Positions 5,806 through 64,000 of a stretch of 64,000 bases of DNA are shown here, in pieces. The number at the start of each line of letters is the position of its first letter. Position 1 is the first letter of the stretch. The notes beneath the pieces are model-generated. The model searched no databases. It was given only the letters and a program-made list of their open reading frames with translations, and had not been told where the DNA came from. The translations under genes were made by a program, and so were the position numbers. The stretch covers positions 41,106,001 through 41,170,000 of the forward strand of contig OZ024751.1 in assembly GCA_964016885.1 (NCBI GenBank), written 5' to 3'. The DNA comes from Eledone cirrhosa (Eukaryota).

Positions 5806-7106
5806 CGTAGTGAAAAACAGAGGTTATATCCGTAGTAAGTAGAGCACTTAGTCCAGTAGACGAATTCGGTATAGAGTTAGTTCCACATAAATTAGCAAAC
5901 CATACTCGAGGACGCGCGTTTCACCTAGCAGACTTTCAACCCGTTATATACAAATATACGATACTATCACAAATAGATATTTAGATAACACGTGCGTAAG
6001 CCGAGCGGGAAGAGCAGAAATATATTTACAGTCCAGGGGAGATAACAATGTCTTTTTTTTAAACGTGTATAAGAGTCTGTATTATGAATATAGAAGTAAT
6101 ATCAGGAATGTTTCTACATCAGGATGGTTTCTACATTTGGCACGAGGCCAGCAATTACCAGTGCATTACTGGTACTTTATTTTATCAAGAATAATAATAA
6201 TAGTTATTATTATCATTGAGTTCAAATCCCGCAGAGGTTAGCTTTGCCTTTCATCCTTATGAGATCGATAAAATAAAGTACCCTGGGACGATTTAATCGA
6301 GTTTCCTCTCCCCTTCAAATTGCTGGCCTTGTGCCTAAAGTAGAAACAATTATTATTATTATTATTATTATCACAAAAGAGGTTTGCTTTGCCATTCATC
6401 CTTACGGGGTCGATACAATAACGGACCAGTAATGCACTGGGATAATTGCTGGCCTTGTGCCAAAAGTAGAAACAATTATTATAATTATGTTCTGATTTCC
6501 GAGGTTACGTGCATTTCGCAGAGGATTGGTTCAAGGTTACCCATTAGAAGTTATGGACCCGACTCCATTATCGATCTGCTCATCAGACTAATATTTTTTT
6601 GTCGAATAACCAGTCTGGTGAGCAGATCGAACAACTGGAACACTCATTGTCGAAACTATCTTTTTAAAAATATTAGGGTGTTATTTTAGGGAGATTGGAC
6701 AGTTGAATAATGAAAAGTGTTTCAGCTGTGACTATTCCTTCCTGTGGTTATATTTTAGGGAGGTTGGGCAGTTACAGCGAAAGCTCATTCATGAACCTAT
6801 TATTTACTGCGATGTATGTATACATATATGTTTCTGAATGTATTAAATTATATTAGGGACTTTTAACTAATGTCACCGGCATTATTCAAGGAAAGCAATC
6901 GATGTGGACAACACCGCGCACTTAGTACCTTTCTATATTCGTTTAATTGAATTATTTCATTTGTAGTGTTTATCCCATTTTTTATGTGATTTTCAATGTT
7001 GCGGGATAGGTGTTCTATCACCTGTATGATTAAATATTTATTTTTATCACAAATAATACACATATAACGGATTATAATCACAGATATTTCACACTGTCTA
7101 AATGCT

Positions 7107-8027: not shown

Positions 8028-8389
8028 CTGAAATATGTGGGAAATCATTTATCACTAATATTCTCTCCATGTTTATGGCAGACATAACCATGTAATATTA
8101 GCTAAGATAATGGAAAATGTATCTTCAAGAGTGGTGTGGTAAATAAATATATACTTATACACCAGGTCCGAGCACAAAGGAACCAACTCCCACTGTCACC
8201 GTCTCTCGCTCTTCCCCAAAACAGATACACACCATGTTATGTGAGAGTGAGATATTAAATTAAAATCTTGTAACAATATTTGTTGGTTGTTATTTTCTGA
8301 AGTCAAAATTTCTGAACTAAAAACATTTATATAACAAAATATTGTTTAATAAAATTGTCTCTATACATAACTTAGAAAAACCTAAAGAT

Positions 8390-8723
8390 GGAGGGACATG
8401 GCTTAGTGGTTAGAGCATTGGCCTTGCAATCGAAAGGTTGTGAGTTCAATTCTCAGACCGGGTGATGTGTTGTTTCCTTGAGCAAGACACTTTATTTCAC
8501 ATTGCTCCAGTTTACTCAGCTGTAGAAATGAGATGATAGGACTCGGGTCCATATCATTCCACTGCAAAGTGGTCGTGGAGGTGCCACGGCAAAAGAGCAC
8601 CCAGCACTCACTGTAAATGAGGTTGGTGTTAGGAAGGGTATCCAGCTGTAGAAATCAAGCCAGAATCAGTTCCCGTCCCACCCTTGCAAGCAGGGAAAAA
8701 GCGGACGTAAAATGAAATGATGA
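8390..8723 (+). mobile_element. tRNA-derived SINE, family A (RTE-like 3' tail)
   Basis: A box TGGCTTAGTGG and B box GAGTTCAATTC, central TCCTTGAGCAAGACACTT, tail gcaagcagggaaaaagcggacgtaaaatgaaatgatga; at least 5 near-identical copies in the window. Confidence 0.85.
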
Positions 8724-9164
8724 AATAGTTTATCAGAAATACAGGCATATATACTTGACAGATATGGAAAGTTGTTCAATAAAATGTACAGAAAAAGAAT
8801 ACAGTATTGGAAAGGACTATAAATGAGAGGGAAAGAGTAACAACTATTTGGCAATGGAAGATAGAAAGGAGAGAGGGGAGAGAATGATAAACTTTACACC
8901 TAAGTCAGAATAGTGTTTCAGTTGCACCATGTGGACAAAATTACAAAGGCATTTCCAAAGACAGCCACCCCATCAGACGTGTTGCTGTCATTCAAAATTT
9001 ACGGAGGGGGTAAGCTGTACAGGGTTCGGGGACGCCTGAAGTCTCATGAGATATTGTCTAGGTGAAGCAATCCAGAGTGACCTGAACTTAAAATCTAAGA
9101 TCATATTAATTAGCAGTCACACTAACACAGCATGATTCATAATAGAAATCTATATGAAAATACA

Positions 9165-9645: not shown

Positions 9646-10040
9646 CTATATGCTTATATATAATGATTACTAATTTTGGCACAATGCCACAATTTGTGTG
9701 TGTGTGTGGGGAGGGCAGTTGATTAAATCAACCCCAGTATTTAACTGGTACTTTATCGACCTCGGAAGGATGAAAGGTAAGGTTGATCTCGATGGGACTT
9801 GAACATGAAATGTAAAGAACCAACCAAATGCCAGAATAGCATTTTATCCGACACCCTACCATTCTGCCAATCCACCACCCTAATATGCTTATGTCTATGT
9901 ATAGTAAATATGCATACATACGTCTCACTATGGGTGTTTTAATCTATGTTCATGTTAGGGCTCTCTCCATCTCCTCACACAGCAACTGATGTAGATGTGC
10001 TATGATCACAGCTTAAATCACCCATAGTGAGAAATATGTA

Positions 10041-10365
10041 CGAGGGTCAGTTGAAATGTTCATAGGCTGACCAAGATACTCTCATGGAATGACCAAATGA
10101 GGTTTATTTTTCAACATAGTCTCTGGAAAGAAACAATGCAGTTATTAATAAGAAGAGTTGCGATTAAGGCATGCAAGATTTCACAGCTCTGGCATCACTT
10201 CTTCATAGGCTGACCAAGATACTCTCTTGGAATGACCAAATGAAGTTTATTTTTCAACATAGTCCCTGGAAAGAAACAATGCAGTTATTAATAAGAAGAG
10301 TTGGAATTAATGTATGCAAGATTTCACAGCTTTACCATCACTCCTTTGTAGTCAGCCAACCCTCG
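10041..10365. mobile_element. Tc1/mariner-type MITE with internal tandem duplication
   Basis: ta|CGAGGG...CCCTCG|ta termini; relatives at 23270-23445, about 50730-50927 and about 62522-62710. Confidence 0.7.
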
Positions 10366-22816: not shown

Positions 22817-24950
22817 AGAACAACATCATTGTGAAACATGTGGGAACTTATTTCTCATACAAAATTCATGTTAAATATAACCAAATATATCTTCTTCTTT
22901 GCTTACTTATTCCTGAGAGGGTCATGGGGGCAGAGACCTCAAACACTCCTTCCAGCAGGTCCTATCAGAAGCAACCGCCTTCAGCTGGATCCCCAAGCAT
23001 GACCAGCAAAGCTCATCTTGCTCTGGGTCTCCTGCTGCTTGGTTTTGCTCATAAAATCTGTTCAGCTATTCATTCCTGAGACATTCTAACCACATGCCCA
23101 TAGTATTGGAGCTTATCGCTCAATTCAGAGAAGTATTGGCTCTACCTGGAGTAACTCCCCGATCTCTGAGTTACACACTTTGAGTAATGTTACTCCAAAT
23201 ATATACAGGAAAAAAATAACAAAACTTGTTGAAAACATTCTTTATATATAGAAGTGAGAAGAAGAAATACGGGGGTTGGCTGAAAAGATACTCTCATGGA
23301 ATGACCAAACAAAGTTTATTTTTCAACATAGTCCCTAGAAAGAAACGATGCGGTTATTAAGAAGAGTTGAAATTAATGCATGCAAGATTTCACTGCATTA
23401 GCATCACTCCTTCAGTCAGCCTATGAACTTTTCAACTGATCCTTGTAACAGTAATTCATGTAAAATTATATCACTAAAGTTTGTGACAAAATATTCACAT
23501 CTCTATGTAAATTAAAATATATGAAAATTTTATATTTGTTGGTTGTTATTTTCTGAACAGTCACAATTATGTTTCAAAATTAATTCAGTTCTAAAAACAC
23601 TGATTTTAACAAGATATTGTTTAATAAAATTGTCTCCATACATAATTTACAGAAATCTAAAGATAGTGACTCCTACATTTTCACCTCCCAGACAGGCTGA
23701 GGTCTTTGTATCCTGCTTACATAGTCATTATTGAGTGCAGCGGAGAAGTTGTGTCTTTGACACAAACTGAAGGGTCCTTCTAACCCTTTTTTTGACAAGC
23801 TTTCCATGGTTGGATGCTTTTCCTAAAACCAGCCACTTTACAGTGTGTACTGGGTGCTTTTATTGTGGCGATCACCATCACCTAGAAAGGTTGTCATGAC
23901 CTTGTACAGTAGAACTGAACCCAGAACCAACACCTTAACCACTCAGCCATGCCTGGACCTAAAATTGTTTACATTTCTTAGAAAAAACACAAATGACTGC
24001 CTTTTGCTGAAGTAAACAAAGTCAAAGAAAAATATTCAAATGTCAATTTATTGTATTATTGAAATAAACAACTAAGAATATGAATGTAAAAATTTTATTT
24101 TATCACATATACTTTCAACCAAACTTAAGATTATAGGAATAACACCATTTAGTGTCCTTTTTTTCCAAGGTTGGATGGGTCGTTACAAACCAAGTTAGAA
24201 GGGCCAGCAGCCAAACTTTGCTTATATATTCTGGTTTCAGCATGGTTTTTACAGTTGGATGTCCGTCTTATTAGCAACCACTTTACTGGGTGTACTGTGT
24301 GTATTTTATCATGGCACCTGCATTAAAGATATTGTCATGTCTTTGATACAACTGAAGAATCAATCCTTCCTACAGCAAGGTTTCTACAGAAGAAGAATAT
24401 TATTGTATGTTTATATTTCAAAATATATTTTCTCCTTTTTACAAAGCTGTTTCAGTTAGACTAAATTAGTACTGAGCTCAGAGAAGCCAGTTGTTGCATC
24501 CCACTTCTGTGCATTTTATTCTGTTACCAACACTAGAAAGGTTGTCGAGCCCTTGACATACTTGAAGAGTCCTCTAGTTCCTTTCTGGCATGTCCTTCCT
24601 ATCACCAATCATCATTCTGAGTGTATTGGGTGCATTTTTCTTGGACCCAGCATTAAAGAAGTTGTGTCATGACTGATGGGTCCTTTCATGTAGCAAGCCA
24701 TCTCACCAATGTAGAATGGTTGTGGTTATATAACATACAGTATTTGGAGATTGTTATCACACTGTTATATCTTCTTTCCTGTATTGATGTATTTATGGTT
24801 AGGTGAGATTATTTTGTTCATAGACTGATACAGTTACTCATCTGTATGAGTACATACATTATCATCATCACTGTTTAACGCCCATTTGTCCATCCTAGCA
24901 TGGGTAGGTAAATAACCGTTTTGAGAGAACGATCTACTAGAAATATTCCC

Positions 24951-26537: not shown

Positions 26538-28584
26538 TATATTATTTAATAAAAGTATGTACATAATCATAACACAAAAATATACAATCAAAGCCAAAAC
26601 AAACATCAATTCAACACGAAGTTCCTCAATCGGTCACACAACAATCTTATTTTCTGCTTTAATGAAATTTATAATCGTAGTTCACTACATGTATGTATAT
26701 TTTTAAACATTTCACTTCAGTTAACTTACTCATGTGTTGTTTTTAATTCATATATTTATTTATATTACATTCATTTCTTTCGTAATAAGTTTACGTCACA
26801 TCTTTAATATAGAAAAGTCTTAAGTTTGTCTCGAGTCCGGAGGCTCAACAGGTCAGTGCGTATCCTAATTTTTAAAGAATGTAGCGATTGAAACTACAAT
26901 ACTTTCCCCATCACGGGGTATCGAGCCTGGTGGTTCATCAAACCAGTGCTTATCCCGGATTTCGAAGTATCTGAGAGTACAAGACTCCTCCCTGGATAGG
27001 ACGCCAGTCCATCGCAGGGTTAGACCCTGAGCTGGCACTCATTTTCAGATAGGTATACTGGAACGTGAAATTAAGTGTTTTGCTCAAGAACACAACACAC
27101 ACATTATGATCGTAACTACAAACTCATATACAACTAGGCCACAAATAGCCTTTCATTGATTACATTTTTCTTGATAAAATATTATTATATCATATAAAAG
27201 GTTAAAATGAGAATTTTATAATTATGCTGTTAAAATTCTTTATTAATTAACTCAAAATAAATTGTATAAAATGTTGTCATAATTGGAACTAATGTCCAGA
27301 ATCCGAAACTAAGGTATTGAATCTGAAACTAACAAATTAAATAACAAACAATTTACGTACCAAATATTGATAAAGTGTTGAAATATATCTTTACCTGATT
27401 AACTAAATGCATTCAATGCGTCCCTTCATTTTTAAGATCCACATGATTATTAGAAATATATAGAGATATTATAATATACTAAGTAAATAAATATTACAAT
27501 AGATAAATAAATAATATATATTATAATACAGTCGATAGATATGACTACTTTTCTATGATTTTATGTTTCAACTTAAATAGGTTATTTTCCAGGTGGATAT
27601 TACTCTGGTCAATATTTCGTTTGGTATTCACTATTCCTTATCTATGAAAGGCAAGACTTAATATCCGGTTGAACATGCGCATTATGAAATCATTTCAGAA
27701 CAAATTTAGTTTTAACATAGTAATTCATTTATTTCAAATTTGCCAAATACATTTACAATACACGATTAAAAGAAAGAGAAAAACGGTGGATGGTTTATCT
27801 GCGTTGGTAAATATTTAAAGTAAGCTCAACTGTAGAACTTCATTTTTTAAAATAATTCTATCACTGTTTATTGTATTTAAAATTGAAATATTAGAATATC
27901 TGACATTCTCAAGGTTATAGGGTGATTTCTGGCTTTGGTGGTGCCTTTGGCTCTCTGACGTAAAATAACGAGGAATTTAACAATTTAAACTTAGTCACAG
28001 AGGAAAAAAACAGAACATTTATTTCTTACGGAATTTAATAACTAATTAAATTATATTAGGGAACTTTCAAAATATGACACCGGATCCATTCATGGGAGGT
28101 AAACATGGTCAACAACACCGCTCATCGAATATCTTCATAATTTCATCTACTCTGATGGCATTAGTACTGATTATCCTATGTTAAGGTATGGATAAAATAT
28201 GGCGAACTACATTTTTCAGGGTAGGTGTTCCATCAACAGTATCAATGAATATTTTATTTCATCGCAAACTCCGATTCTTCTTTACTTTTCAGCTGTCTTT
28301 CAAATTTAAGAGTTCGTATTCTTGTATTGCCACCACAAAGCACATTTTCTACGTCTGTATATCATTTGTGGGGAAAAAAAATTCTTAGGTCCATACGCTC
28401 ACATATTTATAGATGGATCCCGAGTTAAAAAGGTACTCAATACATTAGTAGGGTGTAAACATCACAAATTTAATTTAGAAATGGATTCTACAGGACTAGA
28501 ACTGTTTCACAGACTACTTTATATTGTGAATTGGCTGTGCCAGGACAGGTTGTAGGTTATAATCACGAACACTCACTCATATGA

Positions 28585-28908
28585 TCATCATCATTTTACG
28601 TCCGCTTTTCCCTGCTTGCAAGGGTGGGGCGGGAACTGATTCTGGCTTGATTTCTACAGCTGGATGCCCTTCCTAACACCAACCTAATTTACAGTGAGTG
28701 CTGTGTGCTTTTTTGTCATGGCACCTCCACGATCACTTTGCAGTGGAATGATAGGGATCCAGTCCCTATCATCTCATTTCTACAGCTGAGTAAACTGGAG
28801 CAATGTGAAATAAAGTGTCTTGCTCAAGGAAACAACACATCACTCGGTCTGAGAATTGAACTCACAACCTTTCGATTGCAAGACCAATGCTCTAACCACT
28901 AAGCCATG
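28585..28908 (-). mobile_element. SINE family A
   Basis: Reverse complement of 8390-8723. Confidence 0.85.
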
Positions 28909-29258
28909 TGTGGTACACTAATATTTTTCTGACATTCAGCTTACACCATCATATCTTTTCATGTTTTTCAGATGTGCTGCCTGAGTGTTCCATTACAATC
29001 TGTAGTCAAAGAATGTTGATTCCACCGCAACATCTGCCACCTGTCATGTTTGGACTGACTATATTTTTTAGACTACATAGGATCCATTAAATATATCCAC
29101 ATTTATTAATGTGGAAATACAGACCTTTGTCAACAACATGTGTGCCACATGAAGGAGACCCAGTCAGCAACAAATATTTTGCATATTTCCCAAAATATCT
29201 CAGACAAGAAATTGAACAATAATAGATTATAATCACAGATAGTCCTTCGATAACTACT

Positions 29259-30587: not shown

Positions 30588-31280
30588 AAAACCTTTTTTT
30601 CTATTGCAAATCCAAACTTATTGTTAATCAACAAGTACACATTGTAGATCATTATCATGAGGAAATATGTTGGAAATTCTCATCTTATAACCTTTTCACT
30701 AAAATATTTAGGAAATCCTTATTTGTAAATTATATGATTATTCAAGACCTGATAGTAGAAAAATGCATACATTTTGAACGAGAGACTATATGAATGTGAA
30801 ATAATTGTGAAGTATGTCTACAGTTATAAATCACAAATACAGGCAGGAGAAAAATTGTGAAATATGTTGGAAATCATTCTCTGAATCTAGTCTAGTTATC
30901 CACAAATACACCCTGGAGAAAGATCTATTTGTTATTTGTCTCTTACAGATACACATCTCATTAATCATGACTGGAAAAACACATGGGTAAAAACCTTATG
31001 GATGTGAAATATGTGGAAACTTATTCTCATTCAGGACATCTTAGATATAACTAACTATATATAGGAGGAAAATATTATGATTTGTTGAAAACATTAACTA
31101 CAAGTAAAAAGAAAAATATTACTTATTTTATAATAATTTTATAGATATTAAATTAAAATCTTGTAACAATATTTGTTGATTGTTATTTTCTGAAGTCAAA
31201 ATTTCTGAACTAAAAAGTTATTTAACAAAATATTGTTTAATAAAATTGTCTCTATACATAACTTAGAAAAACCTAAAGAT

Positions 31281-31566
31281 GGAGGCACATGGCTTAGTGG
31301 TTAGAGCATTGGCCTTGCAATCGAAAGGTTGTGAGTTCAATTCTCAGACCGGGTGATGTGTTGTTTCCTTGAGCAAGACACTTTATTTCACAATTCTCCA
31401 GTTTACTCAGCTGTAGAAATGAGATGATAGGACTAGGGTCCATATCATTCCACTGCAAAAAAGCACTGTAAATGAGGTTGGTGTTAGGAAGGGCATCCAG
31501 CCAGAATCAGCTCCCGTCCCCCCCTTGCAAGCAAGGAAAAAGCGGATGTAAAATGAAATGATGATA
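31281..31566 (+). mobile_element. SINE family A (internally deleted)
   Basis: Same head and tail as 8390-8723, inserted at the homologous site (cctaaagat|). Confidence 0.85.
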
Positions 31567-33221: not shown

Positions 33222-36200
33222 TTATCGCTTTCCTCCAATTCTCGGTGCCTTTACAGGAACTGATTTGGCAGCTTTTGATTTCGGGTTCAGTGCTTTTGCA
33301 CCCGCCTGTAAACAAATATAAAAAAAAACTTTCAATAACACAAAATAATTTCATATTGACATTTTTACATAGCCACTTCATCACAATCTCACACCTGTTT
33401 CCCCTGCCAGCAAGGGATGAACAGATCCTCAAGTGGGGCTACTGACCTCTCAAATGGACCAAAGGCTTGCACCTTGCTTACACACAATGCAAAGCCCTAC
33501 TAAGTACATTTTGTAAATTGATACATTCATAAGTTAAACTTACTGGCTACTCATCTCAGGAGCAACAAATTCAAATATTTTATGGCCAGATAGGGAAGTT
33601 GACCACCCTATCTTACTACAATAACAGAAATATAACATATTCTATTACTGATTTTACAATTGGGATTTTAATAGTGGTGTATTTTATATTTGATCTTTGT
33701 AGTTGATATTTTAAGGGGGACACTAATTCTTTTAGAAACAATTACCCAATTAAGCAGTTGTAATCTTGGTAAATATCACAGAAAACAATTCAAGCTGAAA
33801 TGACCATTTCCTTGCTCTTTCTTTGAAAGGTTTTATAAAAAACAGGCAGAAGATACTGACATATCTAGTTAGATTGTTGTATGAGGCACGTGTACCCAAT
33901 AAACTAGATGTACCAATAAATCAACACATTTTCACACACATGCAAAACTATTTAAAATAAAACAAGGTAATAAAAACAAATAACCTTTGCAGGTGCCTTG
34001 GCCGTCTTTTTCAAAGCATCCTTAGCTCTCTGTTTTTCTTTAGCAGCTCTGTAAAAAAAAAATTGTAAAACACTTTAAAATAAGATACAACACAATGCTG
34101 ACCTATCAAACTGTTGTACAAGTTAACCCACAACACTAGATCAAAATCTCTATTTCTCTCAATATTCAGACTAAAATGAGAGCTACCCCCACATACTAAG
34201 GAAAATAGATTGCGCTGGCTTAGCCAGGACTGCATACATGGTGATCCAACTAGTTGACTCATTTCATTTTACATCCGCTTTTCCCCTGCATGCAAGGGTG
34301 GGACGGGAACTGATTTTGGCTTGATTTCTACGGCTGGATGCTCTTCCTAACACCAACCTCATTTACAGTGAGTGCTGGGTGCTTTTTTGCCGTGGCACCT
34401 CCACGACCACTTTGCAGTGGAATGATAGGGACCCCAGTCCCTATCATCTCATTTCTACAGCTGAGTAAACTGGAGCAATGTGAAATAAAGTGTCTTGCTC
34501 AAGGAAACAACACATCACCCGGTCTGAGAATTGAACTCACAACCTTTCGATTGCAAGGCCAATGCTCTAACCACTAAGCCATGTGCCTCCATTGACTATC
34601 TTTTGAAATCTAAAATGATGACTATATACTGTTTGTTGCCCAGTTTAATAGTCACCTGGAGATTCAGAGCATTTATACTTAATGAACAGAAAGTGACTTG
34701 GGACTACACAGGTAAAATAATTAGCTGACAAAGGCCAAACCAGAAGGTTAATACAGCAAAACCTCACCTAACACTTCCTTTCTTAGTGTGTGGACCAAAG
34801 TCAACTCAATCTCATAAATGAATGTATTGGCCATTGCATAATACATTTGATGAAATTCAAGCTACATTCCCAGAAACTAGAATATGGGTGGCACATGAAC
34901 AAATTGCAATGTTTAAAATCAATAGTTCAACAGCTTGGTAGACACACATGGCTACCTCTTTGGTCATGTAGTAGTCCAGTACCATTGTAAACTGTGGTCA
35001 AAGGGAAAGGAGACCAAAGCCTAGTAACTAAACGAGACAGGCACGAAGCTGATGCACACTAAATCATAATACTTACTGAAAGTTAGTGTGACTAATGAGA
35101 TTCATCTCCAACTGTCACAGCAGAAATACAATAAAAATACTTTACTTTCTGCAGAAATTATAACATGGACTACAGAAAAAATTGATAAATATACAGAGAA
35201 CATTTAGTAGAGGTCAACATATTGGATTCTCAACCACGTATTATTGATATTACTATAGATCAATTACTGAATCATGTTTGGAACTGGACGAAGAGAATTC
35301 ACTACTAAAGATATGCCATCAGTCTCAAGAACCGGTATGTATATCCTCCATATATATGGCAAAATCAGGATACAAATTAGAGCTCATCATTTGGCATATA
35401 GTAATATAAATATTGACCTCATCAAACATCACATTTCCACAATATACCAAATTCCTCAACATCTAAAATAGGAAGAGGCTATGTAGCCGGTAAGAGTGTC
35501 AGACACCATGAATTGTGGCCCGAAATCTTTTCCACCATCAATTGTTAAAAAAACAAGTTAAAATCATCATACACTTCAGTTACAACATCTACACGTAAAT
35601 ACATAAACAGATAGACAGAAAGGGGCTGGAGAAACGCTATAGCTATGTGTATTGCACCCCTCTAGAGTTTACCGGCTATATAGCCTATTCGTTTAAAATA
35701 CAGACAGAAATACGGCTACAAAAGAACAAAACAACACTTACCTTATAGCCTGTTCCCTCTGAGCTTTTCTTACTTCTGGTTTCTGGTTACGTTTGGCCAA
35801 AATATCACTTAAAGTGGTACCGGCAATGGCCCTCTGGAACTTGGCTGTTCTACGTGTCCTCTTCTTAGCCACCTCTTCAGTTTGGCCCTTCTTGTGTTTA
35901 CGACGATACAAGACAGTCCAGTTAATCTTTCGAGGATTACGTTTCATTTTAAACGACCGTTCACATTTCGAGTTGAGGAACTGCAGAACCTATCAATAAT
36001 CAATAAATAAAAGCGTTAATTCCAGTAATTGGAAGGCAAAGTGATTGATACAACTTCAGAAATTGTCTAACCTACTACAGTGAGTCCGCATAAGAGTATA
36101 GCATAATCAATTCCCGTTTATATATTTTCTATATAATTTAGTCCGAATAAGAGTATAATGAATACGGTAAAGTAAATTGGGCTTATAATGTTACATAACC

Positions 36201-37558: not shown

Positions 37559-40500
37559 ATGGAAAACAAGAGTAAGTAAACAAAATTCTGTTGCTAATGC
37601 CGCAATAGCTACAACTTTAACTGTGTCTTTATTTTTTGTTATGTCTGTCTTACTGTGTCTTTTAAAATACCATTTCAGATGTTAAACATTATTTATTTCC
37701 TAGATGTACAGATAGCAAGAGTTATATTAAGGAAAACGTTAAGAAATAGATATTTAAAACAAATAAAAACATGGTATTAGTAACCACAATAGACTTGAAA
37801 ATCACCAAATTAAAATATATTGTCGCATTTAATAGGTTAATTTCGTGTGTTCCTCTCATATATATATATATAGATCCAGAAATAGTCGTTGAAACGGCTT
37901 GAGCTCTGCCGTCGGGGTCTTCAACATTTTCCTATATATATATGAAGCGATTCAAACTGAAACTTCGAAGTCACTGACAACTTTCTGCTTAGAAAATTTA
38001 TTTCTACGTTCTATTCACTAGTATTGAGTACTATTTCAGTTAATGTTTGAATATTTCAAATACCACCGTATTTTAAACACACTCCAATAAGTTCGTAACC
38101 TCGATTTTTTCTTCTAATATATATACACACACACACACATATATATATATATACACACACACACATATATATATATATACTTGGGAGGGTCATATTGTTG
38201 TAATAATAATAATATTGCCAGAAATAATAACAGAACACACTCACTGTTTGGTTGGTTTTCGCTTCTGTATCTTTTATACCTCCATAGTTATAAATATATA
38301 TATATTTATATTTAATTAGGAAGTGAACTACACAAAATATATCTACTTCATAACGAAAGGTTTCTGAATCCCAAACAATATTAATATATGTCTGGATCGG
38401 TCATCAGACATGGAGTAGTTATATTTTGTGTTGTTCACTTTCTAATTAAATAGCTCTGTTCTATACATAGAGCACTCTTTTTTCCTTTGCTTTTTCTTCG
38501 GAATTACCTAACACACACGCACGCACACACACACACACACATATATATATGTAAAAGGTAAACAGAAATAACAACACAATCGGTACAGTATATGGAAGGG
38601 ATATATTAGGTTAAGAGGGTCTTAACGTTTTGGACGCTAGTCCTTCGTCAGAAGAAAGAATGAGAAATAAGATAGATTGAGGGGACGGGCAGGTTGGAAT
38701 TTGAAAAAATAACAGGTCCATTGATGTTGACATCTCAAGTTAGTATAGTTAATACGAAGCATTGTGAGATATGTAATAATTGACTGATAAGTTTCAGAAA
38801 GCCGGTACACCATCATCATCATCATCGTATTTAAGAAATAAGATGTAACTTGTGAACTATGATGTTAGGTTTGTAGAAACAAGTACCATCCAGTTATCTT
38901 TTGAATTTAAATTTTTGTTTTATTTCATTATCATTTTTTTTGTCTTTGTAGAAAGCTAACTGTTTAGATGAGAAATCATAGATTGGACCACCTCCTAACT
39001 CTATTGATGTTGTGTTTAATCTCTCCCATTTTTCCAAGTTGAAGGTAGGTTATTTGATTTATTTCAGTAATATCTTACCTTCTTCACTTCCCTATCAAAC
39101 TTTCATATACTTGATGGTTATAAGAGGAATCACATGTGGTGTGCAAGAGAGAAGACTGTGCTGGTTTCGACATGTGATGTGTATGGATGAAGAATGCTGG
39201 GAGAAGAAGGTGTGAGGTGTTGCCAGAGTCTGACCAAGAAAAACGCGGGCAGAAGTGATTAGAGCTGATCTCAAAATACTGAAACTTACAAAAGAAATGA
39301 TAAAGACACCTGTCCAAGCATGACAAAACACATCCAGTCTACCTTGTAACGTGGTAGTGCTGGTGCTATGACAAAAAAGCATCCAGTCCACCCTGTAAGG
39401 TGGTAGTGTTGGTGCCATGACAAAAAGTTCCCACTCTACTCTGTAAGGTGGTGGTAGTGGTGCCATAACGAAACACACCAAGTCCACCCTGTAAGTCACA
39501 ACAAAAATTTTCGGTATTAATTATGAAAATAGTTATATTTTAACGTTTTTCTGTGCACTACATGAAAGTAGTTTTATTTCTTCTCTTGAACCTTTTCACA
39601 TTTATTTGTAGATAACATCAACAAGAATATGTCTAATAATGTATCGAATTGTCTAAACGACCTTAACGAGGATGTGCCTTCGTTTAAGCCTGCAACAGTT
39701 TGCACTACTCTCTCTTCGTCAGTCACCACCATTAATATTACAGACAACTCCATAACTAATGATGAAGAAGAAATTGCTTCCTGTAGTAAACTGTATTCTT
39801 CCTTCTTACAAAGACCAGTGACAGAATCCAAGTATGAAGCCTATGATAATCGCCCCATTCGATCTCTTGGTAAAAACTTTTACAAGACCTTTGCAGACTC
39901 TTCTTTCAGTTGTTCAACACCATTGTTATCAAGAAGTGAACCTGCTGTCTACTGGAGGAAGAAAGCTAAACAGTTTATGACTCAGGCTGCAAATCAGAAT
40001 GAGAATTTGAAGGAAAAGGCAAGAATAATAAAACTGATCTCATTACTGTATCTTCATTTAGGGCGGTAGATTAGCAGAAATGGTAGAGCGTCGGATAACA
40101 TACTTTGTGACATATAGATTCAGCCCTTTACGTTCTGAATTCAAACCAAATCCCACCCAGGTTAGCTTTGCCTTTCATCCTCATGGGGGGGGTTTAGGGG
40201 TTTATAAACTAAAGTACCAGTAATGCACTGGGGTCAATTTAATTGACTTCCCTTTCTCTTCCAATTACTTGCCTTGTGCCAGATGTAGACACAATTACTG
40301 TGTCTTCATTACAGGGTCAGATGATGTATGATAATCAGGACCCTATTCTACTTTTCTTATCTATGTTTCATAGCAACTACATTTTTATCCCGGGTCTTTA
40401 CTTTCTGAGTTCAAATCCCGACATGGTTAAAGGTATCTTTCATCCTTCTGAGGTCGATAAAATAAAGTACCAGTCAAGTACTGGGGTTGATATAATCATC

Positions 40501-40923: not shown

Positions 40924-43900
40924 GTGAGTTTTATTGTAGCACAATAAAGTAATGCAAATATCGGATAAGTAGCACTCAACAGTTTATAGGACTGGAGTAT
41001 AAATAATATAAAATCAAAAGATGGTTAAAAGAGTTCCATGTATTTTATTATGCGCATTTCAAAAACAAATATCATCATGGGATGATATTTGCGTTCTTAT
41101 CAGATAAAATAGGGAGACATGATATGAAGCTTAAAAAACACTTAAAAACACTGATTTTATATATATATATATATATACGCACACACAATAAGGATAATTG
41201 TGAAGGTCTGATGAAGATATTAAGAATTTTTTTTATACATAGAGCTGTGATACGTATTTCAATGGCACTCATGATTACGCGATGCTTCGATCACACAACC
41301 AGTAATGCCACATCATCAGACAACATTTATCTAATTGACTGTGAGCAGTTCATCTGCCCTTTTTTAACAGCTCTTGTTTTTTTCTGCTACTGGGGTTCCA
41401 CTTACCTCCCTCATCAGACCAGGGTCTGGTGAGGGAGCTAGTTTAGTTGCTGACCACTCAACCATGAAGCAGGTTGTATTGGGTTAAGGTAGCTAAAGGT
41501 TTATCTTGGAAGCTACATCAATGTTCATCACACCTTTAACTTAAACTCCCAGCTGTTTCTCCTTTCATATGTCATGACTAAAGAATTTTGTCCATTGCTC
41601 TACCGATTCTACCAATCCACCACACTTAATATATATTTAAATAACAACTCGAAGATATATAGGTGCAAAGGTTGTAACATTCCAATTGCCATTTGTTAAG
41701 ATTTGTTTCCTCTGGACCTTCTTTGGGGTCTCAGGACATGCAATCTTTGTTTGTCCATCCCATGCCTTCTAGGACATGTTGCAGCCCTATCAACAGTTTT
41801 CATAGCATTAGATGCAGACTGCAATATATTCTACAAACAGGACTTAAGGTGCAAGCATGGCTGTTTGGTTAAAAAGTTCATTTCACACCCATATAGTTTC
41901 AGGTTTGATCTCACAGTGTGACACCCTATTTTACATTGTGACTGGTATATAGTATCAGCAATTGGAAAAACCAATGGAAACATTGTTTCCTTGGTCCGAT
42001 CTGGCGAGTTCCACCCCACATGGTAAGTGGATGAGGTCTGGGATCTTATTGATTTCAATCATCATTATAACACATTTACTAATGATTTCAACATTATGAA
42101 TATATGTAATTATGTGTGTGTATAAAAATTGATAATTTTAATAAATCCCTCAAAATTCTTCAACTAATTAAAACTGAGTGTATTAACATTAGATATTCAA
42201 TGATGAAAGGGTTAAATATGATGTATCTTTTCAGGTAAAATCTAATAGAGTGACCATGGATAAGGCATCAGATATATCCACTAATACTCCAGGAAGATAT
42301 ACTTCAACATCTCAAATATGTATTTCGCATTTGTCAAACTGTGAGTAGTACTTAGTAGTTTATATTTTTTTAAATTAATATATATATGTATATATAATAT
42401 ACCTGTTTGCAATGTGTGATGCTGCATGGTAGTGAGACATGGACAGTGAATGTAGAGGATATGTGAAATCAGAAGAGAAATGAATTGAGCATGTTCTAAT
42501 ATATGTGCAAGGTTAAGAAGAGATGACTGCACTGGTATAGACATGTGATGTGTATGAATGATGATTGTTGTGTGAAGAAGTGCCAATAAATCCCAGTGGA
42601 AGGAAGCTGCAGTAGGTGAGCTGGGAAGACCTGGGTAAAAGCGGTGATAGCTGATCTCAAATCGCTGAAGTTGAAAGAGGAGATGACAAAGGACCACGAT
42701 AAATGGAGAGATGGTGTGCTGGAAAAGATATGTTCAACACATCAAGCATGGAAAAGCTGATGTAAAACAATAATTATATATTTCATCTATCTGTCACCCA
42801 CCTTGTGGATTGTTTCTCTGTTGGCCGCTCGTCTCTGTCCCCTGAGGCATTTTTGTCCATTGCTGTTTTTGACAGCATTTAGCTGTTTTTAACGGCTGTT
42901 CTAGCAGTGAGTTTTCTCAATTTTATATGAATTAGTATAATGATGATGATGATGAGAGAAAAGTGACGTAGAAAATATGAAACATAGTCTGACAGATAGT
43001 ATTAGCCATAGAAAGACTTCTACAAACACTGTTTCCTTGGTCCAATCTGACAGTCGGCTTATTTTTTCTTTTTGTATTTTGTCAGTGGATAATGCAGCTA
43101 CATGTATCCAGGCAGCATGGCGAGGTTATTATTGCCGGAACTTTCTATATCACGTCAAAAATGCTCAACTTGAGCTAAGGAATCAGAGGGCAGAGAAACA
43201 CATCAACAAGCTGAGTCGAGATTTACAACGGTAAGAATATAATTCCATTGTACCAACTTGAGGTAGCTTTTAAATTAAAGTGTTGTGTTTTTTATTATTT
43301 AGAAATAAATATTGGAAGATTTGAATAGAACCATGATATAAGTGAGAGGAATAGAACTAGGGATGAGTGTTGTGAAGAGAAATGTAATGAGATGGTTTGG
43401 TCATGTGTTGAGGAAGTATGAAAGTGACTAAGTGAGAAGAATAAATCCAGTTAGGAAAGTTGTGAAGAGAAATGTAATGAGATGGTTTGGTCATGTGTTG
43501 AGGTGGCATGAAAGTGTCTGTTACCTCACATGTCTCTCATAACCTGCAAATTGAAAACACCTGACATGGATAGTGTGGCTAATAAGCAGGAGGTTGCATT
43601 TTTACTAACCCTTTCATGACCGTATTTCTAATTAAATACACTCTATTTCAATTAATTAATGAAGAACTTTGAAGGATTTACTAAAATTATTAGTTATTTC
43701 ATTACTTAGATGGCAACATAATGTAAGGTTCTTAAATAAAATTGTTGGAAACCTTTAGAATGGGAGACTTTATTTCATAGACCCAGGACCGGTTTTTTTT
43801 CAGATTGGTAACTAATGGGTTAATGTTTGTTTTAACATTTCAGGCAGCAGATGCAGTGTAATGAGAAATCCAATCTACTGAAGCAACTTATACAAATTGT

Positions 43901-49427: not shown

Positions 49428-49473
<46 letters not shown>

Positions 49474-50018
49474 AGGCACATGGCTTAGTGGTTAGAGCAT
49501 TGGCCTTGCAATCGAAAGGTTGTGAGTGTTGTGTTGTTTCCTTGAGCAAGACACTTTATTTCACATTGCTCCAGTTTACTCAGCTGTAGAAATGAGATGA
49601 TAGGACTGGGGTCCCTATCATCCCACTGCAAAGTGGTTGTGGAGGTGCCACGGCAAAAAAGCACCCAGCACTCACTGTAAATGAGGTTGGTGTTAGGAAG
49701 GGCATCCAGCTGTAGAAATCAAGCCAGAATCAGTTCCCGTCCCACCCTTGCAAGCAGGGAAAAAGCAGACGTAAAATGAAATGATGAATATATATATGAC
49801 CAATGAGAATTAAGATTATTTCTGCTGACAACATTAAATTATTCCTAACAAGCTCATATGTCCCAAGGCTCTGATACAATCAACACCATAAACACAGAGC
49901 TGGCATATCTAAAAACTGACTAACTGCCTGATGAGGTCATAGCACTCAATAGCTATCATCGAAATATATATAGCAGTAAATAAAGGATTATGAGTTCATA
50001 CAATTGACTTATGTTTCG

Positions 50019-50054
<36 letters not shown>

Positions 50055-51900
50055 CAAGGTTTAACAAATAGAGAAAAAGTTTTGAAATAAATTTTTAAAA
50101 GTTTACTGTACTTACTACATTTACCCTTACCGCGCGGTTTCAAGTCTCAAAATAAATGGATAATCCATGCGGAACACCATTGAGAAGGAGACTTTCGTCA
50201 GAGGGTTCTTCTCACTTGGAGAATATAAAATTCCAGAGTTCAAATCACGAACTGGCGCCATACAGAATTGTTCCCGGATGAGAGTGTATGATAAGGAAAC
50301 AATCTTGTCTAGTGCCGTGTGTAAAGATAGAAGGCAAGGGCGGAAAGGTCAATGTCCTGCCACTAGAAATAGCAGCAGTTAAAACGACCAAAATGTTATC
50401 TCGACCTTAGGGGAGATTAATAATAATAATAAAGTATCTTTTCCTACGTGCAAAAAATGCATATAGGGACACATGTATTATCCAACCGTATGACAATGTG
50501 GTTCTATGGCAGGTTAATAAATTAACGAGCCAGAACATATATAATCAAGGTTTAGCAAATAGAGAAAAAGTTTTAAAATAAATTTTAAAAAGTTTACTGT
50601 ACTTACTATATTTACCTTTACCAAAAGTCTCAAAATAAATGGATAATCCATGCGGAACACCATTGAGAAGGAGACATTCGTCAGAGGGTTCTTCTCACTC
50701 GGAGAATATATATATTGTATATGTATATACATGGGTCAGCTGAAAAATTCATAGGCTAACCAAGATACTCTCATGGAATGACCAAATGAAGTTTATTTTT
50801 CAACATAGTCCCTGGAAAGAAACAATGCAGTTATTAATAAGAAGTGTTGAATTTCATGCATCCAAGATTTCACAGCTCTAGCATCACGCCATCATAGTCA
50901 GCCTATGAACTTTTCAATCGACCCTCGTATATATTTCACATTCTTTATGTTTTTACTGTATTTAATAAATTATTTTTTGCTTTTATTTTCTTAATTTAAT
51001 GGTTTCTTCTATTATTTTATTGGTTTCTTTATGTATAATTTATTACACTTATAGTATGTCTGTAATATATTTAATAAATTATTTTACTATATTCCATCCA
51101 GGTTTAATATAACGACAGTATCGAAATTTCAAGAATCCCGAATGTCGCCAACAATTAATGTAGTTTACTGTAGTAGTTTAGATAATTTGAATGTTACTGA
51201 CAAAATAATGTCAACACACAATGGCTTAGAGAGGAGTAACTGTGTATTTAATCAACACGAGAAACCTGATTCAATGAAAATAAAAAAAGCAGTAAATTCT
51301 TCATCAAATCAACCAAGTCAATTTGTGACTTCAAATTTAAGTTCTTCCTCAATGGCATTCCAATCTTCCAGTCCATCTAGACACAAAAACAGTTATAAAC
51401 CATCACATATTATATCTGACAGAAATTCCTCACCAGGGACCTCGAATGGATCAAGTAACGAAGCTATAATATCGAAAGATATGAACAAAGGGGAGCAGTC
51501 CGTTACTAAAACTTTAAATAGTTTTACAGGCCCTAATATTTTAGGACTGCCTGTAGTTGATGGACAACTCCAAACCGACGACAATTGTTCTGTTAATTCA
51601 TTCACTTCTGTCGAGACTTCAGGCTCGGATCGGAAAAAGATGACTGTTGCAGAAACTGTTGAACAGTATTTCCTTCAGTGTAAAAGAACTAACGTATCCG
51701 TAGATTCTAATGACGAAACAGCTCTTTCACAAGCAAATGAAAAGAAACCCTCAATTTTAAGTGATAATGATTCTACTAACCCAACCAAGCAGAATCTGAA
51801 CCCCCCTCTGAAACAAGAAAGAGCTTTGTCTTCTGGAGCTGAAGGAGTAATCAATTCCTTGAAATCAGATGAAGAGGGAGATGACACAGTTTTAGAATAA
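37559..51900 (+). CDS. CEP97: CEP97-like centrosomal protein (IQ motif, coiled coil, FN3, Ser-rich tail), about 698 aa; exons 37559-37571, 39612-40018, 42235-42340, 43086-43230, 43844-43919, 44689-44808, 45763-45835, 46959-47030, 48023-48211, 48765-48861, 51102-51900
   Basis: All intron phases are compatible (2097 nt, one GC-AG intron). AATCIQAAWRGYYCRN...ELRNQRAEKHI..L..DLQR resembles the CEP97 IQ/coiled-coil block as I recall it. FN3 pattern PKNFSV..ISKNSVVLSW...GYKIYVNG...VSNLNP..SYKFNI. The 5' end is the least certain part. Confidence 0.75.
38952..39044 (+). pseudogene. Possible decayed LRR exon of the CEP97-like gene
   Basis: Pyrimidine tract plus tgtag acceptor and AAG|gtaggt donor; reads KANCLDEKS*IGPPPNSIDVVFNLSHFSKLK, with stops in all three frames. 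Confidence 0.4.
41244..41324 (-). ncRNA. Minimal type I hammerhead ribozyme
   Basis: GTTGT-CTGATGA-tGTGGCA...TGCCATt-GAAA-TACGTA-TC^ACAGC. Confidence 0.75.
44045..44478. repeat. 48-bp minisatellite, about 9 copies
   Basis: Unit agtggtagtgctggtgccacgataaaatgcacccagtacactctatat. Confidence 0.95.
44915..45098. mobile_element. piggyBac-type MITE copy
   Basis: TTAA|CCCATTAGCATTTA...CTAAAGGG|TTAA. Confidence 0.75.
46400..46590 (+). mobile_element. SINE family B, full length
   Basis: TGGCAGTATCGG A-box, GAGTTCAAATCCC B-box, ...GGCCTTGTGCCAAAAGTAGAAACAATTA tail. Other copies at 58418-58608, 61170-61325, 40065-40280, 56840-57012(-), 55015-55115(-) and 6217-6480. Confidence 0.85.
47431..47934. repeat. 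63-bp minisatellite, 8 copies
   Basis: Unit tcagcagaaggggttggtactcaaagcagagagccagggtcctgcatcataccaggttctcag. Confidence 0.95.
49472..49787 (+). mobile_element. SINE family A inserted in (TA)n
   Basis: Matches 8390-8723 with a deletion through the B box. Confidence 0.85.
49923..49977 (+). ncRNA. Minimal type I hammerhead ribozyme
   Basis: ACTGC-CTGATGA-GGTcATAGC-loop-GCTATcATC-GAAA-TATATA-TA^GCAGT, followed by AATAAA. Confidence 0.8.
50051..50710 (-). mobile_element. Non-coding retroelement with ~175-bp hammerhead-bearing direct repeats (retrozyme or Penelope pLTR-like)
   Basis: Direct repeats at about 50051-50227 and 50542-50710, flanked by TA-rich tracts, with no convincing ORF. Confidence 0.7.
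50123..50206 (-). ncRNA. Minimal type I hammerhead ribozyme
   Basis: ACCCT-CTGACGA-AAGTCTC...GAGACTT-GAAA-CCGCGCGG-TA^AGGGT. Confidence 0.85.
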
Positions 51901-57773: not shown

Positions 57774-57831
57774 ATACCTGATGATGTCACCGGATTCATA
57801 CTGAACCCGGTCATTGAAATGATCATAGTAT
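57774..57831 (+). ncRNA. Minimal type I hammerhead ribozyme
   Basis: ATAC-CTGATGA-tGTcACCGGaTTCA-tac-TGAAcCCGGTcATt-GAAA-TGATCA-TA^GTAT, followed by AATAAA. Confidence 0.75.
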
Positions 57832-62199: not shown

Positions 62200-63039
62200 C
62201 ACAACTGTGATAATTGCCTGTTGAACATTCTGCAACTTGAGAATTACGTATTCAACAGTTAGAACAAGTGGAGCTAGATCGATACTTATCAATTGATCTG
62301 ATACGATTTCCCTTCTCATTACTTACATATTCCGGTTCTCTTACAAGTCAATAAGTCAATGGACACGATATAATTGATAATAAACCAATATTCCAATTGT
62401 CAAGGGAGGGAGCCTACAACGATGGCGTGGAGTCTCTTTAGACTTAATAAACTAGATAAGAACGAACCATGTTGCACTGTCATTAATGTAGAAGATAGCT
62501 TCAAGCTGTTCACGTATCATATACGAGAGTTGGCTGGTTTATAGGCTGACTATGAAGGATTGATGCTAGAGCTGTGAAATCTTGCATGCATTAATTTCAA
62601 CTCTTCTTATTAATAAATGCATTGTTTCTTTCCAGGGACTATGTTGAAAAATAAACCACATTTGGTCAATCCATGAGAGTATCTTGGTCAGCCTATGAAC
62701 TTTTCAAGCGGCCATATTGAATCCTTTTTTTAAAGGGGAATTTCATGTAAGAAGAAGACACAGTAAGAGAGAAAACTGGGGTCTAGCGACTGTCCCTCTC
62801 CACCCCCTCTCATTCTTTCGTTCCTTGATCCTCCCTTCTTTTTCTTCTTTTCTCTACCACCAGCACCAGCACCACCACCACCACCACCATTAGCATCTGA
62901 CCACTGTCACTACCATCATTACGATCATTACCACAACCACTGCTACCACTACAACCATCACCTGACCACCACCACCACTACCACGACCACCACTACCATC
63001 ACCACCACCATCTGACCACCACCACCAGGGTAGGGGAAC

Positions 63040-64000
63040 ATTTAGTCGTATGTGTGAAAACCGCCTGTATTTTTCTGACAACGTTTACATCAAATGGGCA
63101 GCTGATCTCCACAACAGAACACGTTTTCAATGTGCGGTCCCAAACAACAATATCAGGCCGGTTTGCTTTAATTTGGTGGCAGTTTTTATTTTCAGGTTCC
63201 ACCAATATTCCTTAGTGCCATCTGTCTCAATATATTCTTCCTCGTTTGTTGTTAATTTTGTTTTCCGAAGTGCGTTCCAGATAGTTCTAGCTATCCCATC
63301 GTGTCTCATGGGGAGGTAGTAGCGAGATGACATTCTTTCGCAGCTGGCAACAATGTGGCTTACATCCTCGATCTTTGTTTTACATAGCCTACATTTACTG
63401 TCAGCTGATGGCCTTCCTCTTTTGTGCAGCAGATATTTGGTAGGGAGTTCTTGTCCCTGTATTGCATAGAGATATCCCTCAAGGTGTGATGTCATAAACT
63501 TGTCGGAACTCCATGCCAGGCTTTTTGAGTGGTTTATCCCCCTCTATGGTCTTTGTTTTACATCTCAAGTATCCATGCACAACTTTTTCTGTAAATTGGT
63601 CAATTTTTTCATCTTGTTTGAACATTGAATAGGATCTTCCGATTTCTCTGGGTGAGAGATTTATATCAGACTTTATTCCATATCTCTCCTCCAGATCAGT
63701 GGCTATCCTAATGATATTTTTTTTTCATGCTCATAAACCTGGGCAAGATGGTTGCCAACCTTTTTCCTCTGTTGAAGATGTGGCTTCTGTGTTACTATCC
63801 GGGTCTCATATGATGTTAATATGGATTTTAGACCCCGGCCACCTTCCTTGCGTGAGAAGTATAGCCTATCCACATCACCATTGATGTTAAAGTTCCCAGT
63901 AACACTGAGAAGTTTGCGAGTTCTAACATCCATCTTACTTAGTTCTTGCAATGACCAGTTCAGCAGGCCAAATGTTGGCGTTAGAATTGGCACAGTATAA
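63040..64000 (-). mobile_element. Frameshifted R4/Dong-like non-LTR retrotransposon 3' part (RT C-terminus, CCHC knuckle, REL endonuclease); continues beyond the window
   Basis: DVDRLYFSRKEGGRGL; CRLCKTKIEDVSHIVASC...RHD; NRPDIVVWDRTLKTCSVVEISCPFD (PD..D..E REL motif). Confidence 0.85.

Follow-up and report, generated by a model that had tools for sequence, protein, structure and literature searches.

A decayed partial tandem with a Penelope-type hammerhead in Eledone cirrhosa: a likely non-autonomous unit of a many-copy, non-coding family

What kind of element leaves two direct repeats behind, one with an intact and one with a broken hammerhead ribozyme, on either side of a non-coding spacer? 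The question is raised by an insertion in a 64,000-nucleotide stretch of Eledone cirrhosa DNA (assembly GCA_964016885.1, contig OZ024751.1, positions 41,106,001 to 41,170,000), hereafter the window, to whose numbering all coordinates refer. An initial annotation of this DNA had proposed a non-autonomous Penelope derivative with the layout pseudo-long terminal repeat (pLTR), spacer, pLTR, or a retrozyme. Our analysis favors, with a probability of roughly 60%, a decayed 1.36-unit copy of a non-coding 491-bp family that is likely mobilised in trans by the reverse transcriptase (RT) and endonuclease of an autonomous Penelope-like element (PLE). The proposal thereby stands as to the non-coding, multi-copy, head-to-tail unit and the PLE-type hammerhead, and falls short as to the retrozyme, whose definition calls for two hammerheads. 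By its anatomy the element would be assigned to the PLE type rather than counted as a proven member.

We first describe the layout (Table 1). The direct repeats of ~175 bp, said to lie ~490 bp apart, were readily recovered: they measure 182 and 174 bp and are 90.7% identical over 182 columns (blastn, E 4.8e-70). Seven substitutions and one complex 8-nt gap separate them, so that the offset from repeat to repeat is 491 bp on one side of the gap and 483 bp on the other. The GC content of the 491-bp unit is 37%. The element had also been called unrelated to the rest of the DNA, and blastn (word 7) against the window indeed returned only the twin repeat and short AT-rich matches. No target-site duplication of the insertion could be distinguished from the flanking TA runs. 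On the + strand at 50224-50249 we noticed a TATAAAA with a TCAC ~21 nt further, a combination that may have arisen by chance; antisense TATA- and initiator-like motifs are known from the pLTRs of PLEs (PMC3846280).

Evidence on the family comes from other copies of the unit. Four of nine public sequencing runs (X1, X4, X5 and X7), none of the nine registered as RNA, were aligned to the monomer 50046-50536 at a likeness of at least 80%; the individual variants discussed here come from the subset displayed, which comprised 40 of the 199 substitutions, 24 of the 270 loose ends and a minor fraction of the pieces. The assembly was possibly built from X1; that run is then not independent for the locus 50046-50710 but still informs on other copies, and its contig counts and summed depth are no copy number. 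In X1, 1,378 of 17.1 million contigs match the monomer, with 134, 428, 489 and 327 of them in the identity bands 99+, 95-99, 90-95 and <90%. All 29 bins of the monomer are covered; summed depth never falls below 4,889 within the spacer, whereas single long pieces have 5-12. The share of aligned sequence that runs on into unlike sequence is 0, and diverged contigs (X1 records 2-4) bridge from the repeat into the spacer; no single piece among those displayed spans the whole unit. The head-to-tail joint from 50536 to 50046 occurs in all four runs, in five contigs of X1, two of X4, one of X5 and 21 reads of X7 with 10 different starts. X5 comes from another organism (organism B), in which six contigs aligned in total, all <95% alike and one of them carrying the joint. 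These data show a many-copy family that comprises the complete 491-bp unit with its spacer and extends to a second organism.

The read ends in X7, a restriction-site-associated DNA (RAD) library, were also considered as marks of the element termini. They cluster at 50090/50093, at 50229/50232 (to 50233) and at 50523, with mixed flanks. Five of the six peaks fall exactly on AATT words, X1 has no such ends in the displayed rows, and the idea was dropped. A fourth AATT word, at 50266, has been abolished in the family by T50268C and shows no read-end peak. Since AATT words carry the peaks and the lost word carries none, we read them as cuts made in preparing the restriction library. Searches of metagenome and viral contigs with a stem-II pattern gave no match. 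We also rejected as chance the 13 public-contig matches to a 19-nt pattern, none of which exceeded 24 nt or continued into a hammerhead.

We then turned to the ribozyme of the 3' repeat, which agrees with the type I hammerhead consensus taken from PMC3088659 (C3 U4 G5 A6 N7 G8 A9, G12 A13 A14 A15, U16 H17; three helices; ends in helix I). The initial annotation had placed it at 50123-50206(-), and its 5-bp stem I, CUGACGA, 7-bp stem II, GAAA and UA were all found; the palindrome is 10 nt long rather than 8. A helix II of 7 bp, a helix I of 5 bp and a 10-nt palindromic helix III together give the motif PLE-type geometry: the PLE hammerheads of metazoans have 7-8 bp in helix II, 4-5 bp in helix I and a palindromic helix III (PMC4209133). 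A strict descriptor, composed after the motif had been seen (core, helix II of at least 3, perfect palindrome of at least 8, helix I of at least 5), found two matches in the window, this motif and one at 49928 (+), against none in 300 block shuffles. Rfam reported no hammerhead family at the element, neither among 69 matches across the window nor among five in a local search.

Folding predictions bear on how such a motif could act. Unconstrained cofolding of two intact copies gave exactly the dimer hammerhead, at a predicted -64.9 kcal/mol against 2 x -23.5 (-47.0) kcal/mol, and the 10-bp palindrome duplex between two copies is predicted at -19.9 kcal/mol. The monomer hammerhead fold is predicted at -26.6 kcal/mol and the local minimum at -26.7 kcal/mol, with a pair probability of ~0.5 for helix III. 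Because the monomer fold lies within 0.1 kcal/mol of the predicted minimum, dimerisation may not necessarily be required, although the palindrome would favor the dimer. Folded as a circle, the 491-bp monomer has z = -3.35 on the - strand (40 shuffles), with 52% of its bases predicted to pair. A spacer segment at 50341-50333, predicted to span the cut site by base pairing when the unit is folded as a circle, was tried as an off-switch and discarded, as the majority variant A50337G breaks the pairing.

The second hammerhead, near 50613-50690 in the 5' repeat, had been described as lacking the GAAA/palindrome segment, which we confirmed. It shows a net loss of 8 nt over GAAA and helix III, together with one mismatch in helix II (50193-equivalent) and one in helix I (50126-equivalent), and fails the type I consensus. 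Both loop letters left after the deletion differ from the intact copy, with UU at 50613-50630 (-) where the intact copy has GC; possibly the helix III loop of the 5' repeat was once a different one, or a 10-nt deletion was followed by slippage in a T-run. The 8-nt deletion is absent among the 11 indels listed at 4% or more in the family, and the damage to the 5' ribozyme is therefore rare or private. At the repeat differences 50064, 50084, 50118 and 50217, all outside the ribozyme, the majority base of the family sits in the 5' repeat, so both repeats have drifted, by roughly 2%. That the lesions of the 5' repeat fall inside the ribozyme and those of the 3' repeat outside it was rejected as a signal: the events are few, the pattern was seen post hoc, and neutral decay suffices. 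With its 5' ribozyme destroyed, the locus could make at most one cut and cannot release a monomer, and cofolding of the broken with the intact copy yielded no dimer hammerhead. The earlier suggestion that two ribozymes pair through the palindrome to free a ~490-nt monomer is thus consistent with the dimer predicted for two intact copies, and does not hold for the locus itself.

How might such an insertion arise? In the preferred reading, a tandem or partial-tandem master copy would be transcribed on the - strand, and the 10-nt palindrome would bring neighboring hammerheads together, which would then cut after GUA. The product would be a unit RNA of ~491 nt, possibly closed into a circle by a host ligase. 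A TA-rich site would then be nicked by the PLE protein, and reverse transcription would begin ~76-82 nt 3' of the cut site, beside a tail-like hairpin. More than one unit would be copied, from a circle or a multimer, and joining at AT-rich microhomology would produce the repeat-spacer-repeat order; after insertion, both repeats would have drifted by ~2% and the 5' ribozyme would have been destroyed. The predicted cut is 82 nt away from the 3' end of the insertion (76-82 if the TA overlap is allowed for), and the hairpin predicted at 50500-50536 appears tail-like in position and size, the tail of PLEs being 30-40 bp (PMC11167929, PMC8557442). With purified Poseidon protein, AT-rich DNA is cut by the endonuclease and the RT begins internally on the RNA template, at a stem-loop that lies 85-92 nt downstream of the hammerhead cut; partial tandems and AT-rich targets are listed among PLE traits in the same work (PMC11167929). 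Such a route, from transcribed tandems through dimer cleavage and possible circularisation to copying of more than a unit, was earlier proposed for PLEs (PMC4209133), and units of 51-972 bp have been reported as non-autonomous PLE derivatives (bioRxiv 10.64898/2026.07.22.740005).

Several observations weigh against this reading. The termini of the family cannot be mapped from X7, whose read-end peaks coincide with restriction words. The hammerhead itself departs from its presumed class, with A-U where PLE hammerheads conserve G10.1-C11.1, and without their unpaired base between A9 and helix II; G10.1 is a common variant in the family (T50194C, 32% of X1 depth). When the full 665-nt RNA is folded in silico, helix II persists, but pair probabilities of 0.0 are predicted for helices I and III; for the + strand circle, the z score of -2.64 comes close to that of the - strand. 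From the published work, the Penelope/Poseidon protein is reported to insert RNA in vitro regardless of hammerhead cleavage (PMC11167929), and eight of nine Xenopus retrozyme dimers remained uncut in vitro (bioRxiv 10.64898/2026.07.22.740005).

Some of these points also suit the rival that survives best, namely that the ribozyme is a passenger and the PLE protein copies uncut, linear read-through RNA of tandems by internal initiation, with neither monomer nor circle. We consider it unlikely, though a serious contender. PAc hammerhead mutants insert normally in vitro, and the account of that system reports no RNA-seq reads starting or ending at the PAc cut site (PMC11167929); PLE hammerheads cut poorly even as dimers (PMC4209133), and ribozyme-free partial tandems arise in Naiad and Chlamys elements (PMC8557442). 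Against it, the unit, which is non-coding, offers no other obvious reason for retaining the motif. The core is intact in the 3' repeat and in the diverged subfamilies seen as loose ends, one of which has CUGAAGA, with only the free N7 base changed. The common helix variants G50203A, G50188A and T50194C keep pairing by wobble, as judged from pooled variants whose partner bases are not displayed; one X5 contig carries C50146G, which breaks helix II. For the preferred reading it may be added, as a weak point by itself (~1.2 expected), that the catalytic core is spared by all of the 40 best-supported of 199 substitutions.

A more active role for the ribozyme can also be envisaged. The arm UGAGAAG sits 1 nt 5' of helix I and is complementary to CUUCUCA, where the unpaired bases above helix II begin; the two could form a candidate 7-bp pseudoknot. 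This pairing is predicted at -9.7 kcal/mol (as a duplex), against -3.2 kcal/mol for a competing weak 5' hairpin at 50223-50209. A match of at least 7 nt arises by chance in 1.6-2.9% of 20,000 random or shuffled loops, and is found in one of the eight other hammerhead-like motifs of the window, there within a hairpin. With C50211T, which accounts for 64% of X1 depth, the arm reads UGAAAAG, and the loop reads CUUUUCA in a subfamily represented by 161 loose ends in X7; in these pooled data, the two variants affect the two partners of a single pseudoknot pair (50211/50184). Another subfamily retains CUUCUCA despite a different helix II strand. These partner-position variants lend the candidate pseudoknot suggestive support. 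Pseudoknots between stems I and II occur in ~40% of hammerhead representatives, across all three types (PMC3088659), and tertiary contacts are described as usually missing from PLE hammerheads (PMC6155905). A Watson-Crick contact that links the regions of stems I and II would be shared with the pseudoknot-stabilised hammerheads; unlike the cases in PMC3088659, the candidate would lie in an animal PLE-type repeat and use an internal loop above a 7-bp helix II. One might then picture a circular-RNA parasite of Penelope elements with a switchable, pseudoknot-braced PLE-type hammerhead, whose pseudoknot and 3-bp helix III would make fast monomer cutting possible and whose 5' hairpin would be the off state. 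We hold this model to be quite unlikely; if true, it would represent a living intermediate between the slow, dimer-dependent PLE hammerheads and the efficient ribozymes of retrozymes.

Could the locus instead be a one-off, an internal deletion or truncated end of an autonomous PLE that does not propagate itself, with pLTRs as repeats and a leftover of an open reading frame (ORF) or untranslated region as spacer? The pLTR-x-pLTR layout fits, most genomic PLE hammerheads are remnants of truncated elements (PMC4209133), and the window holds several further hammerhead remnants. What makes this improbable is that the entire spacer is multi-copy and, both in diverged copies and in the second organism, has the repeat at either end, with no aligned X1 sequence running on into unlike sequence. 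Nor does the spacer look like a coding leftover. In line with the ~310 bp said to hold no credible protein, the 309-bp spacer drew a blank in Pfam: six open frames (42-73 aa) over repeat and spacer matched no family at E<=1 and gave no trace of RT or GIY-YIG domains. Only the 73-aa frame, on the ribozyme strand, was searched deeper, against 1.84 billion proteins; two weak phmmer matches (E 1.4e-4 and 5.4e-4), both short and to repetitive sequences, led us to reject it as a coding remnant. One- and two-base indels, which break the frames, are common in the spacer across copies.

Least probable is a ribozyme-bearing short interspersed element (SINE) or satellite moved by a long interspersed element (LINE) or by DNA-level duplication, without any PLE: hammerhead SINE-like repeats such as Schistosoma Sm-alpha exist (PMC6765202) and the window contains LINE remnants and tRNA-like SINEs, yet the element has no tRNA-like Rfam match and no poly-A end, its hammerhead geometry is PLE-type and not the canonical 6-bp/4-bp, and a joint that recurs in other copies and in a second organism cannot be the product of local duplication.

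Comparison with published systems places the element close to several of them. It shares with metazoan PLE hammerheads the type I order and the helix dimensions given above (PMC4209133, PMC6765202), a predicted dimer fold and a location in direct repeats (PMC4209133); dimer cleavage of hammerheads is reviewed in PMC6765202. A second hammerhead on the opposite strand nearby is a further likeness, published pairs lying 100-700 bp apart (PMC4209133). Besides the two departures in and next to helix II, it is set apart from PLE hammerheads by the lack of an ORF between the repeats, by a 3-bp helix III that can close as a monomer, and by a structured 39-nt loop II with the candidate pseudoknot.

Animal non-LTR retrozymes (PMC7229834; bioRxiv 10.64898/2026.07.22.740005) likewise consist of non-coding, low-GC units with one type I hammerhead each, head-to-tail joints, many dispersed copies, structured RNA (predicted here) and a proposed PLE-dependent mobility. 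Those of coral and mussel are 150-450 bp long, have type I hammerheads and are expressed as circles (PMC7229834). The 2026 preprint regards retrozymes as non-autonomous PLE derivatives, and one of nine dimers tested there was cleaved (bioRxiv 10.64898/2026.07.22.740005). Unlike them, the unit measures 491 bp, against reported circles of ~170-400 nt (consensus 51-972 bp in the preprint), and its hammerhead has PLE geometry instead of the canonical one. The preprint defines a retrozyme by at least two tandem units, each with a complete hammerhead; the locus has 1.36 units and one hammerhead.

Non-autonomous PLEs with pLTRs and microsatellite targets are known (PMC8557442), and PLE tails and partial tandems have been described (PMC3846280). 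With MRC1 of Chlamydomonas (PMC8557442) and the tandems of tailed PLEs (PMC3846280, PMC11167929) the element has in common a pLTR-like partial tandem, insertion in microsatellite or AT-rich DNA and no visible target-site duplication. As in tailed PLEs, its 3' end lies ~80 nt past the hammerhead cut, with a tail-sized predicted hairpin beyond. It differs from MRC1, whose parents are mostly without hammerheads, and has no inverted pLTR.

Table 1 Coordinates of the element, its hammerhead and adjoining features in the window.
Feature	Position	Strand	Basis or remark
Whole insertion, a repeat-spacer-repeat partial tandem that spans 1.36 non-coding units of 491 bp	50046..50710	-	direct-repeat alignment
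3' repeat, pLTR-like, with intact hammerhead, 182 bp	50046..50227	-	repeat alignment
Spacer, 309 bp, non-coding, predicted hairpin chain, part of the family unit	50228..50536	-	folding and public runs
5' repeat with broken hammerhead, 174 bp	50537..50710	-	core CUGACGA from 50684
(TA)n run, 3' end of the insertion	50022..50052	.	sequence
Shorter TA run, other end of the insertion	~50704-50714	.	sequence
Intact type I hammerhead	50123..50206	-	motif reading and folding
Helix I, 5 Watson-Crick pairs	50206-50202/50127-50123	-	hammerhead of the 3' repeat
Hammerhead core CUGACGA	50201-50195	-	3' repeat
Helix II, 7 Watson-Crick pairs	50194-50188/50148-50142	-	39-nt loop with predicted inner hairpin
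GAAA	50141-50138	-	3' repeat hammerhead
UA of the GUA triplet	50129-50128	-	predicted cut between 50128 and 50127
10-nt palindrome ACCGCGCGGU, helix III	50138-50129	-	3-bp hairpin (monomer) or 10-bp duplex (two copies)
Candidate 7-bp pseudoknot	50181..50214	-	UGAGAAG 50214-50208 with CUUCUCA 50187-50181
Predicted hairpin, ~36 nt, directly after the unit 3' end in tandem register	50500..50536	-	folding
Neighboring hammerhead of another family, CUGAUGA, palindrome AUAUAUAU, then AATAAA	49923..49977	+	motif reading; 70 bp from the element

The surroundings of the element are AT-rich eukaryotic DNA with microsatellites and tRNA-like repeats, in which hammerhead-like motifs occur at a density of ~1 per 7 kb. 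By blastn, none of those in the window shares sequence with the element beyond the core. The nearest, at 49923-49977 (+), has a 5-bp helix I and eight of nine pairs in helix II; it is probably a separate PLE-end remnant, which spans ~49800-50021 and ends at the TA run of the element. Two further motifs at 41319 (-) and 41103 (-), 216 bp apart, have the 8-nt palindromes AUACGUAU and AUGCGCAU and long hairpins above helix II, the second with CUGAUAA; they bear no similarity to the element and are probably the other ribozyme element of the initial annotation. Decayed hammerhead-like motifs (CUGAUGA ... GAAA, some with palindromes or AATAAA) were seen at 57778 (+), 53749 (+), 49342 (+), 38407 (-) and 6586 (-). 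At 5913-5922 (-), GAA, the palindrome ACGCGCGU and C, with no CUGANGA upstream, are possibly a decayed hammerhead half.

Other repeats and frames were noted in passing. A tRNA-like SINE family of ~330 bp has five near-full copies (49470-49788, 8388-8724, 34259-34592, 28579-28910 and 31279-31564) that are 76-92% alike, several of them near the Rfam tRNA threshold. Immediately right of the element lies a dispersed repeat of ~190 bp (50741-50932), with copies at 62519-62706, 10035-10357 and 23285-23447. At 63127-63543 (-), a zf-RVT domain (Pfam PF13966, E 1.1e-06) marks the remnant of a non-LTR retrotransposon, and at least seven long C2H2 zinc-finger ORFs cluster at 2771-30587 on both strands. 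The open frames 51055-51900 (+), 281 aa, and 39590-40069 (+), 159 aa, match no significant Pfam family, and two protein searches with the flanking ORFs returned no host gene. The two open frames may be exons of one gene on the + strand; the element would then lie antisense inside or beside that gene, and the 49923 hammerhead would be sense.

We found no description of a cephalopod hammerhead or retrozyme among the papers searched (PMC10886601 and PMC13282606 included); the main text of the Octopus vulgaris repeat annotation has Penelope families and no occurrence of 'ribozyme'. If the favored reading is right, the 491-bp unit would add a new family to a published class. It would provide a test case for in vivo cutting by PLE-type hammerheads and for circles as genuine intermediates of transposition, and, being many-copy and non-coding, the family would permit tests of covariation and selection that are confounded by coding overlap in autonomous PLEs.

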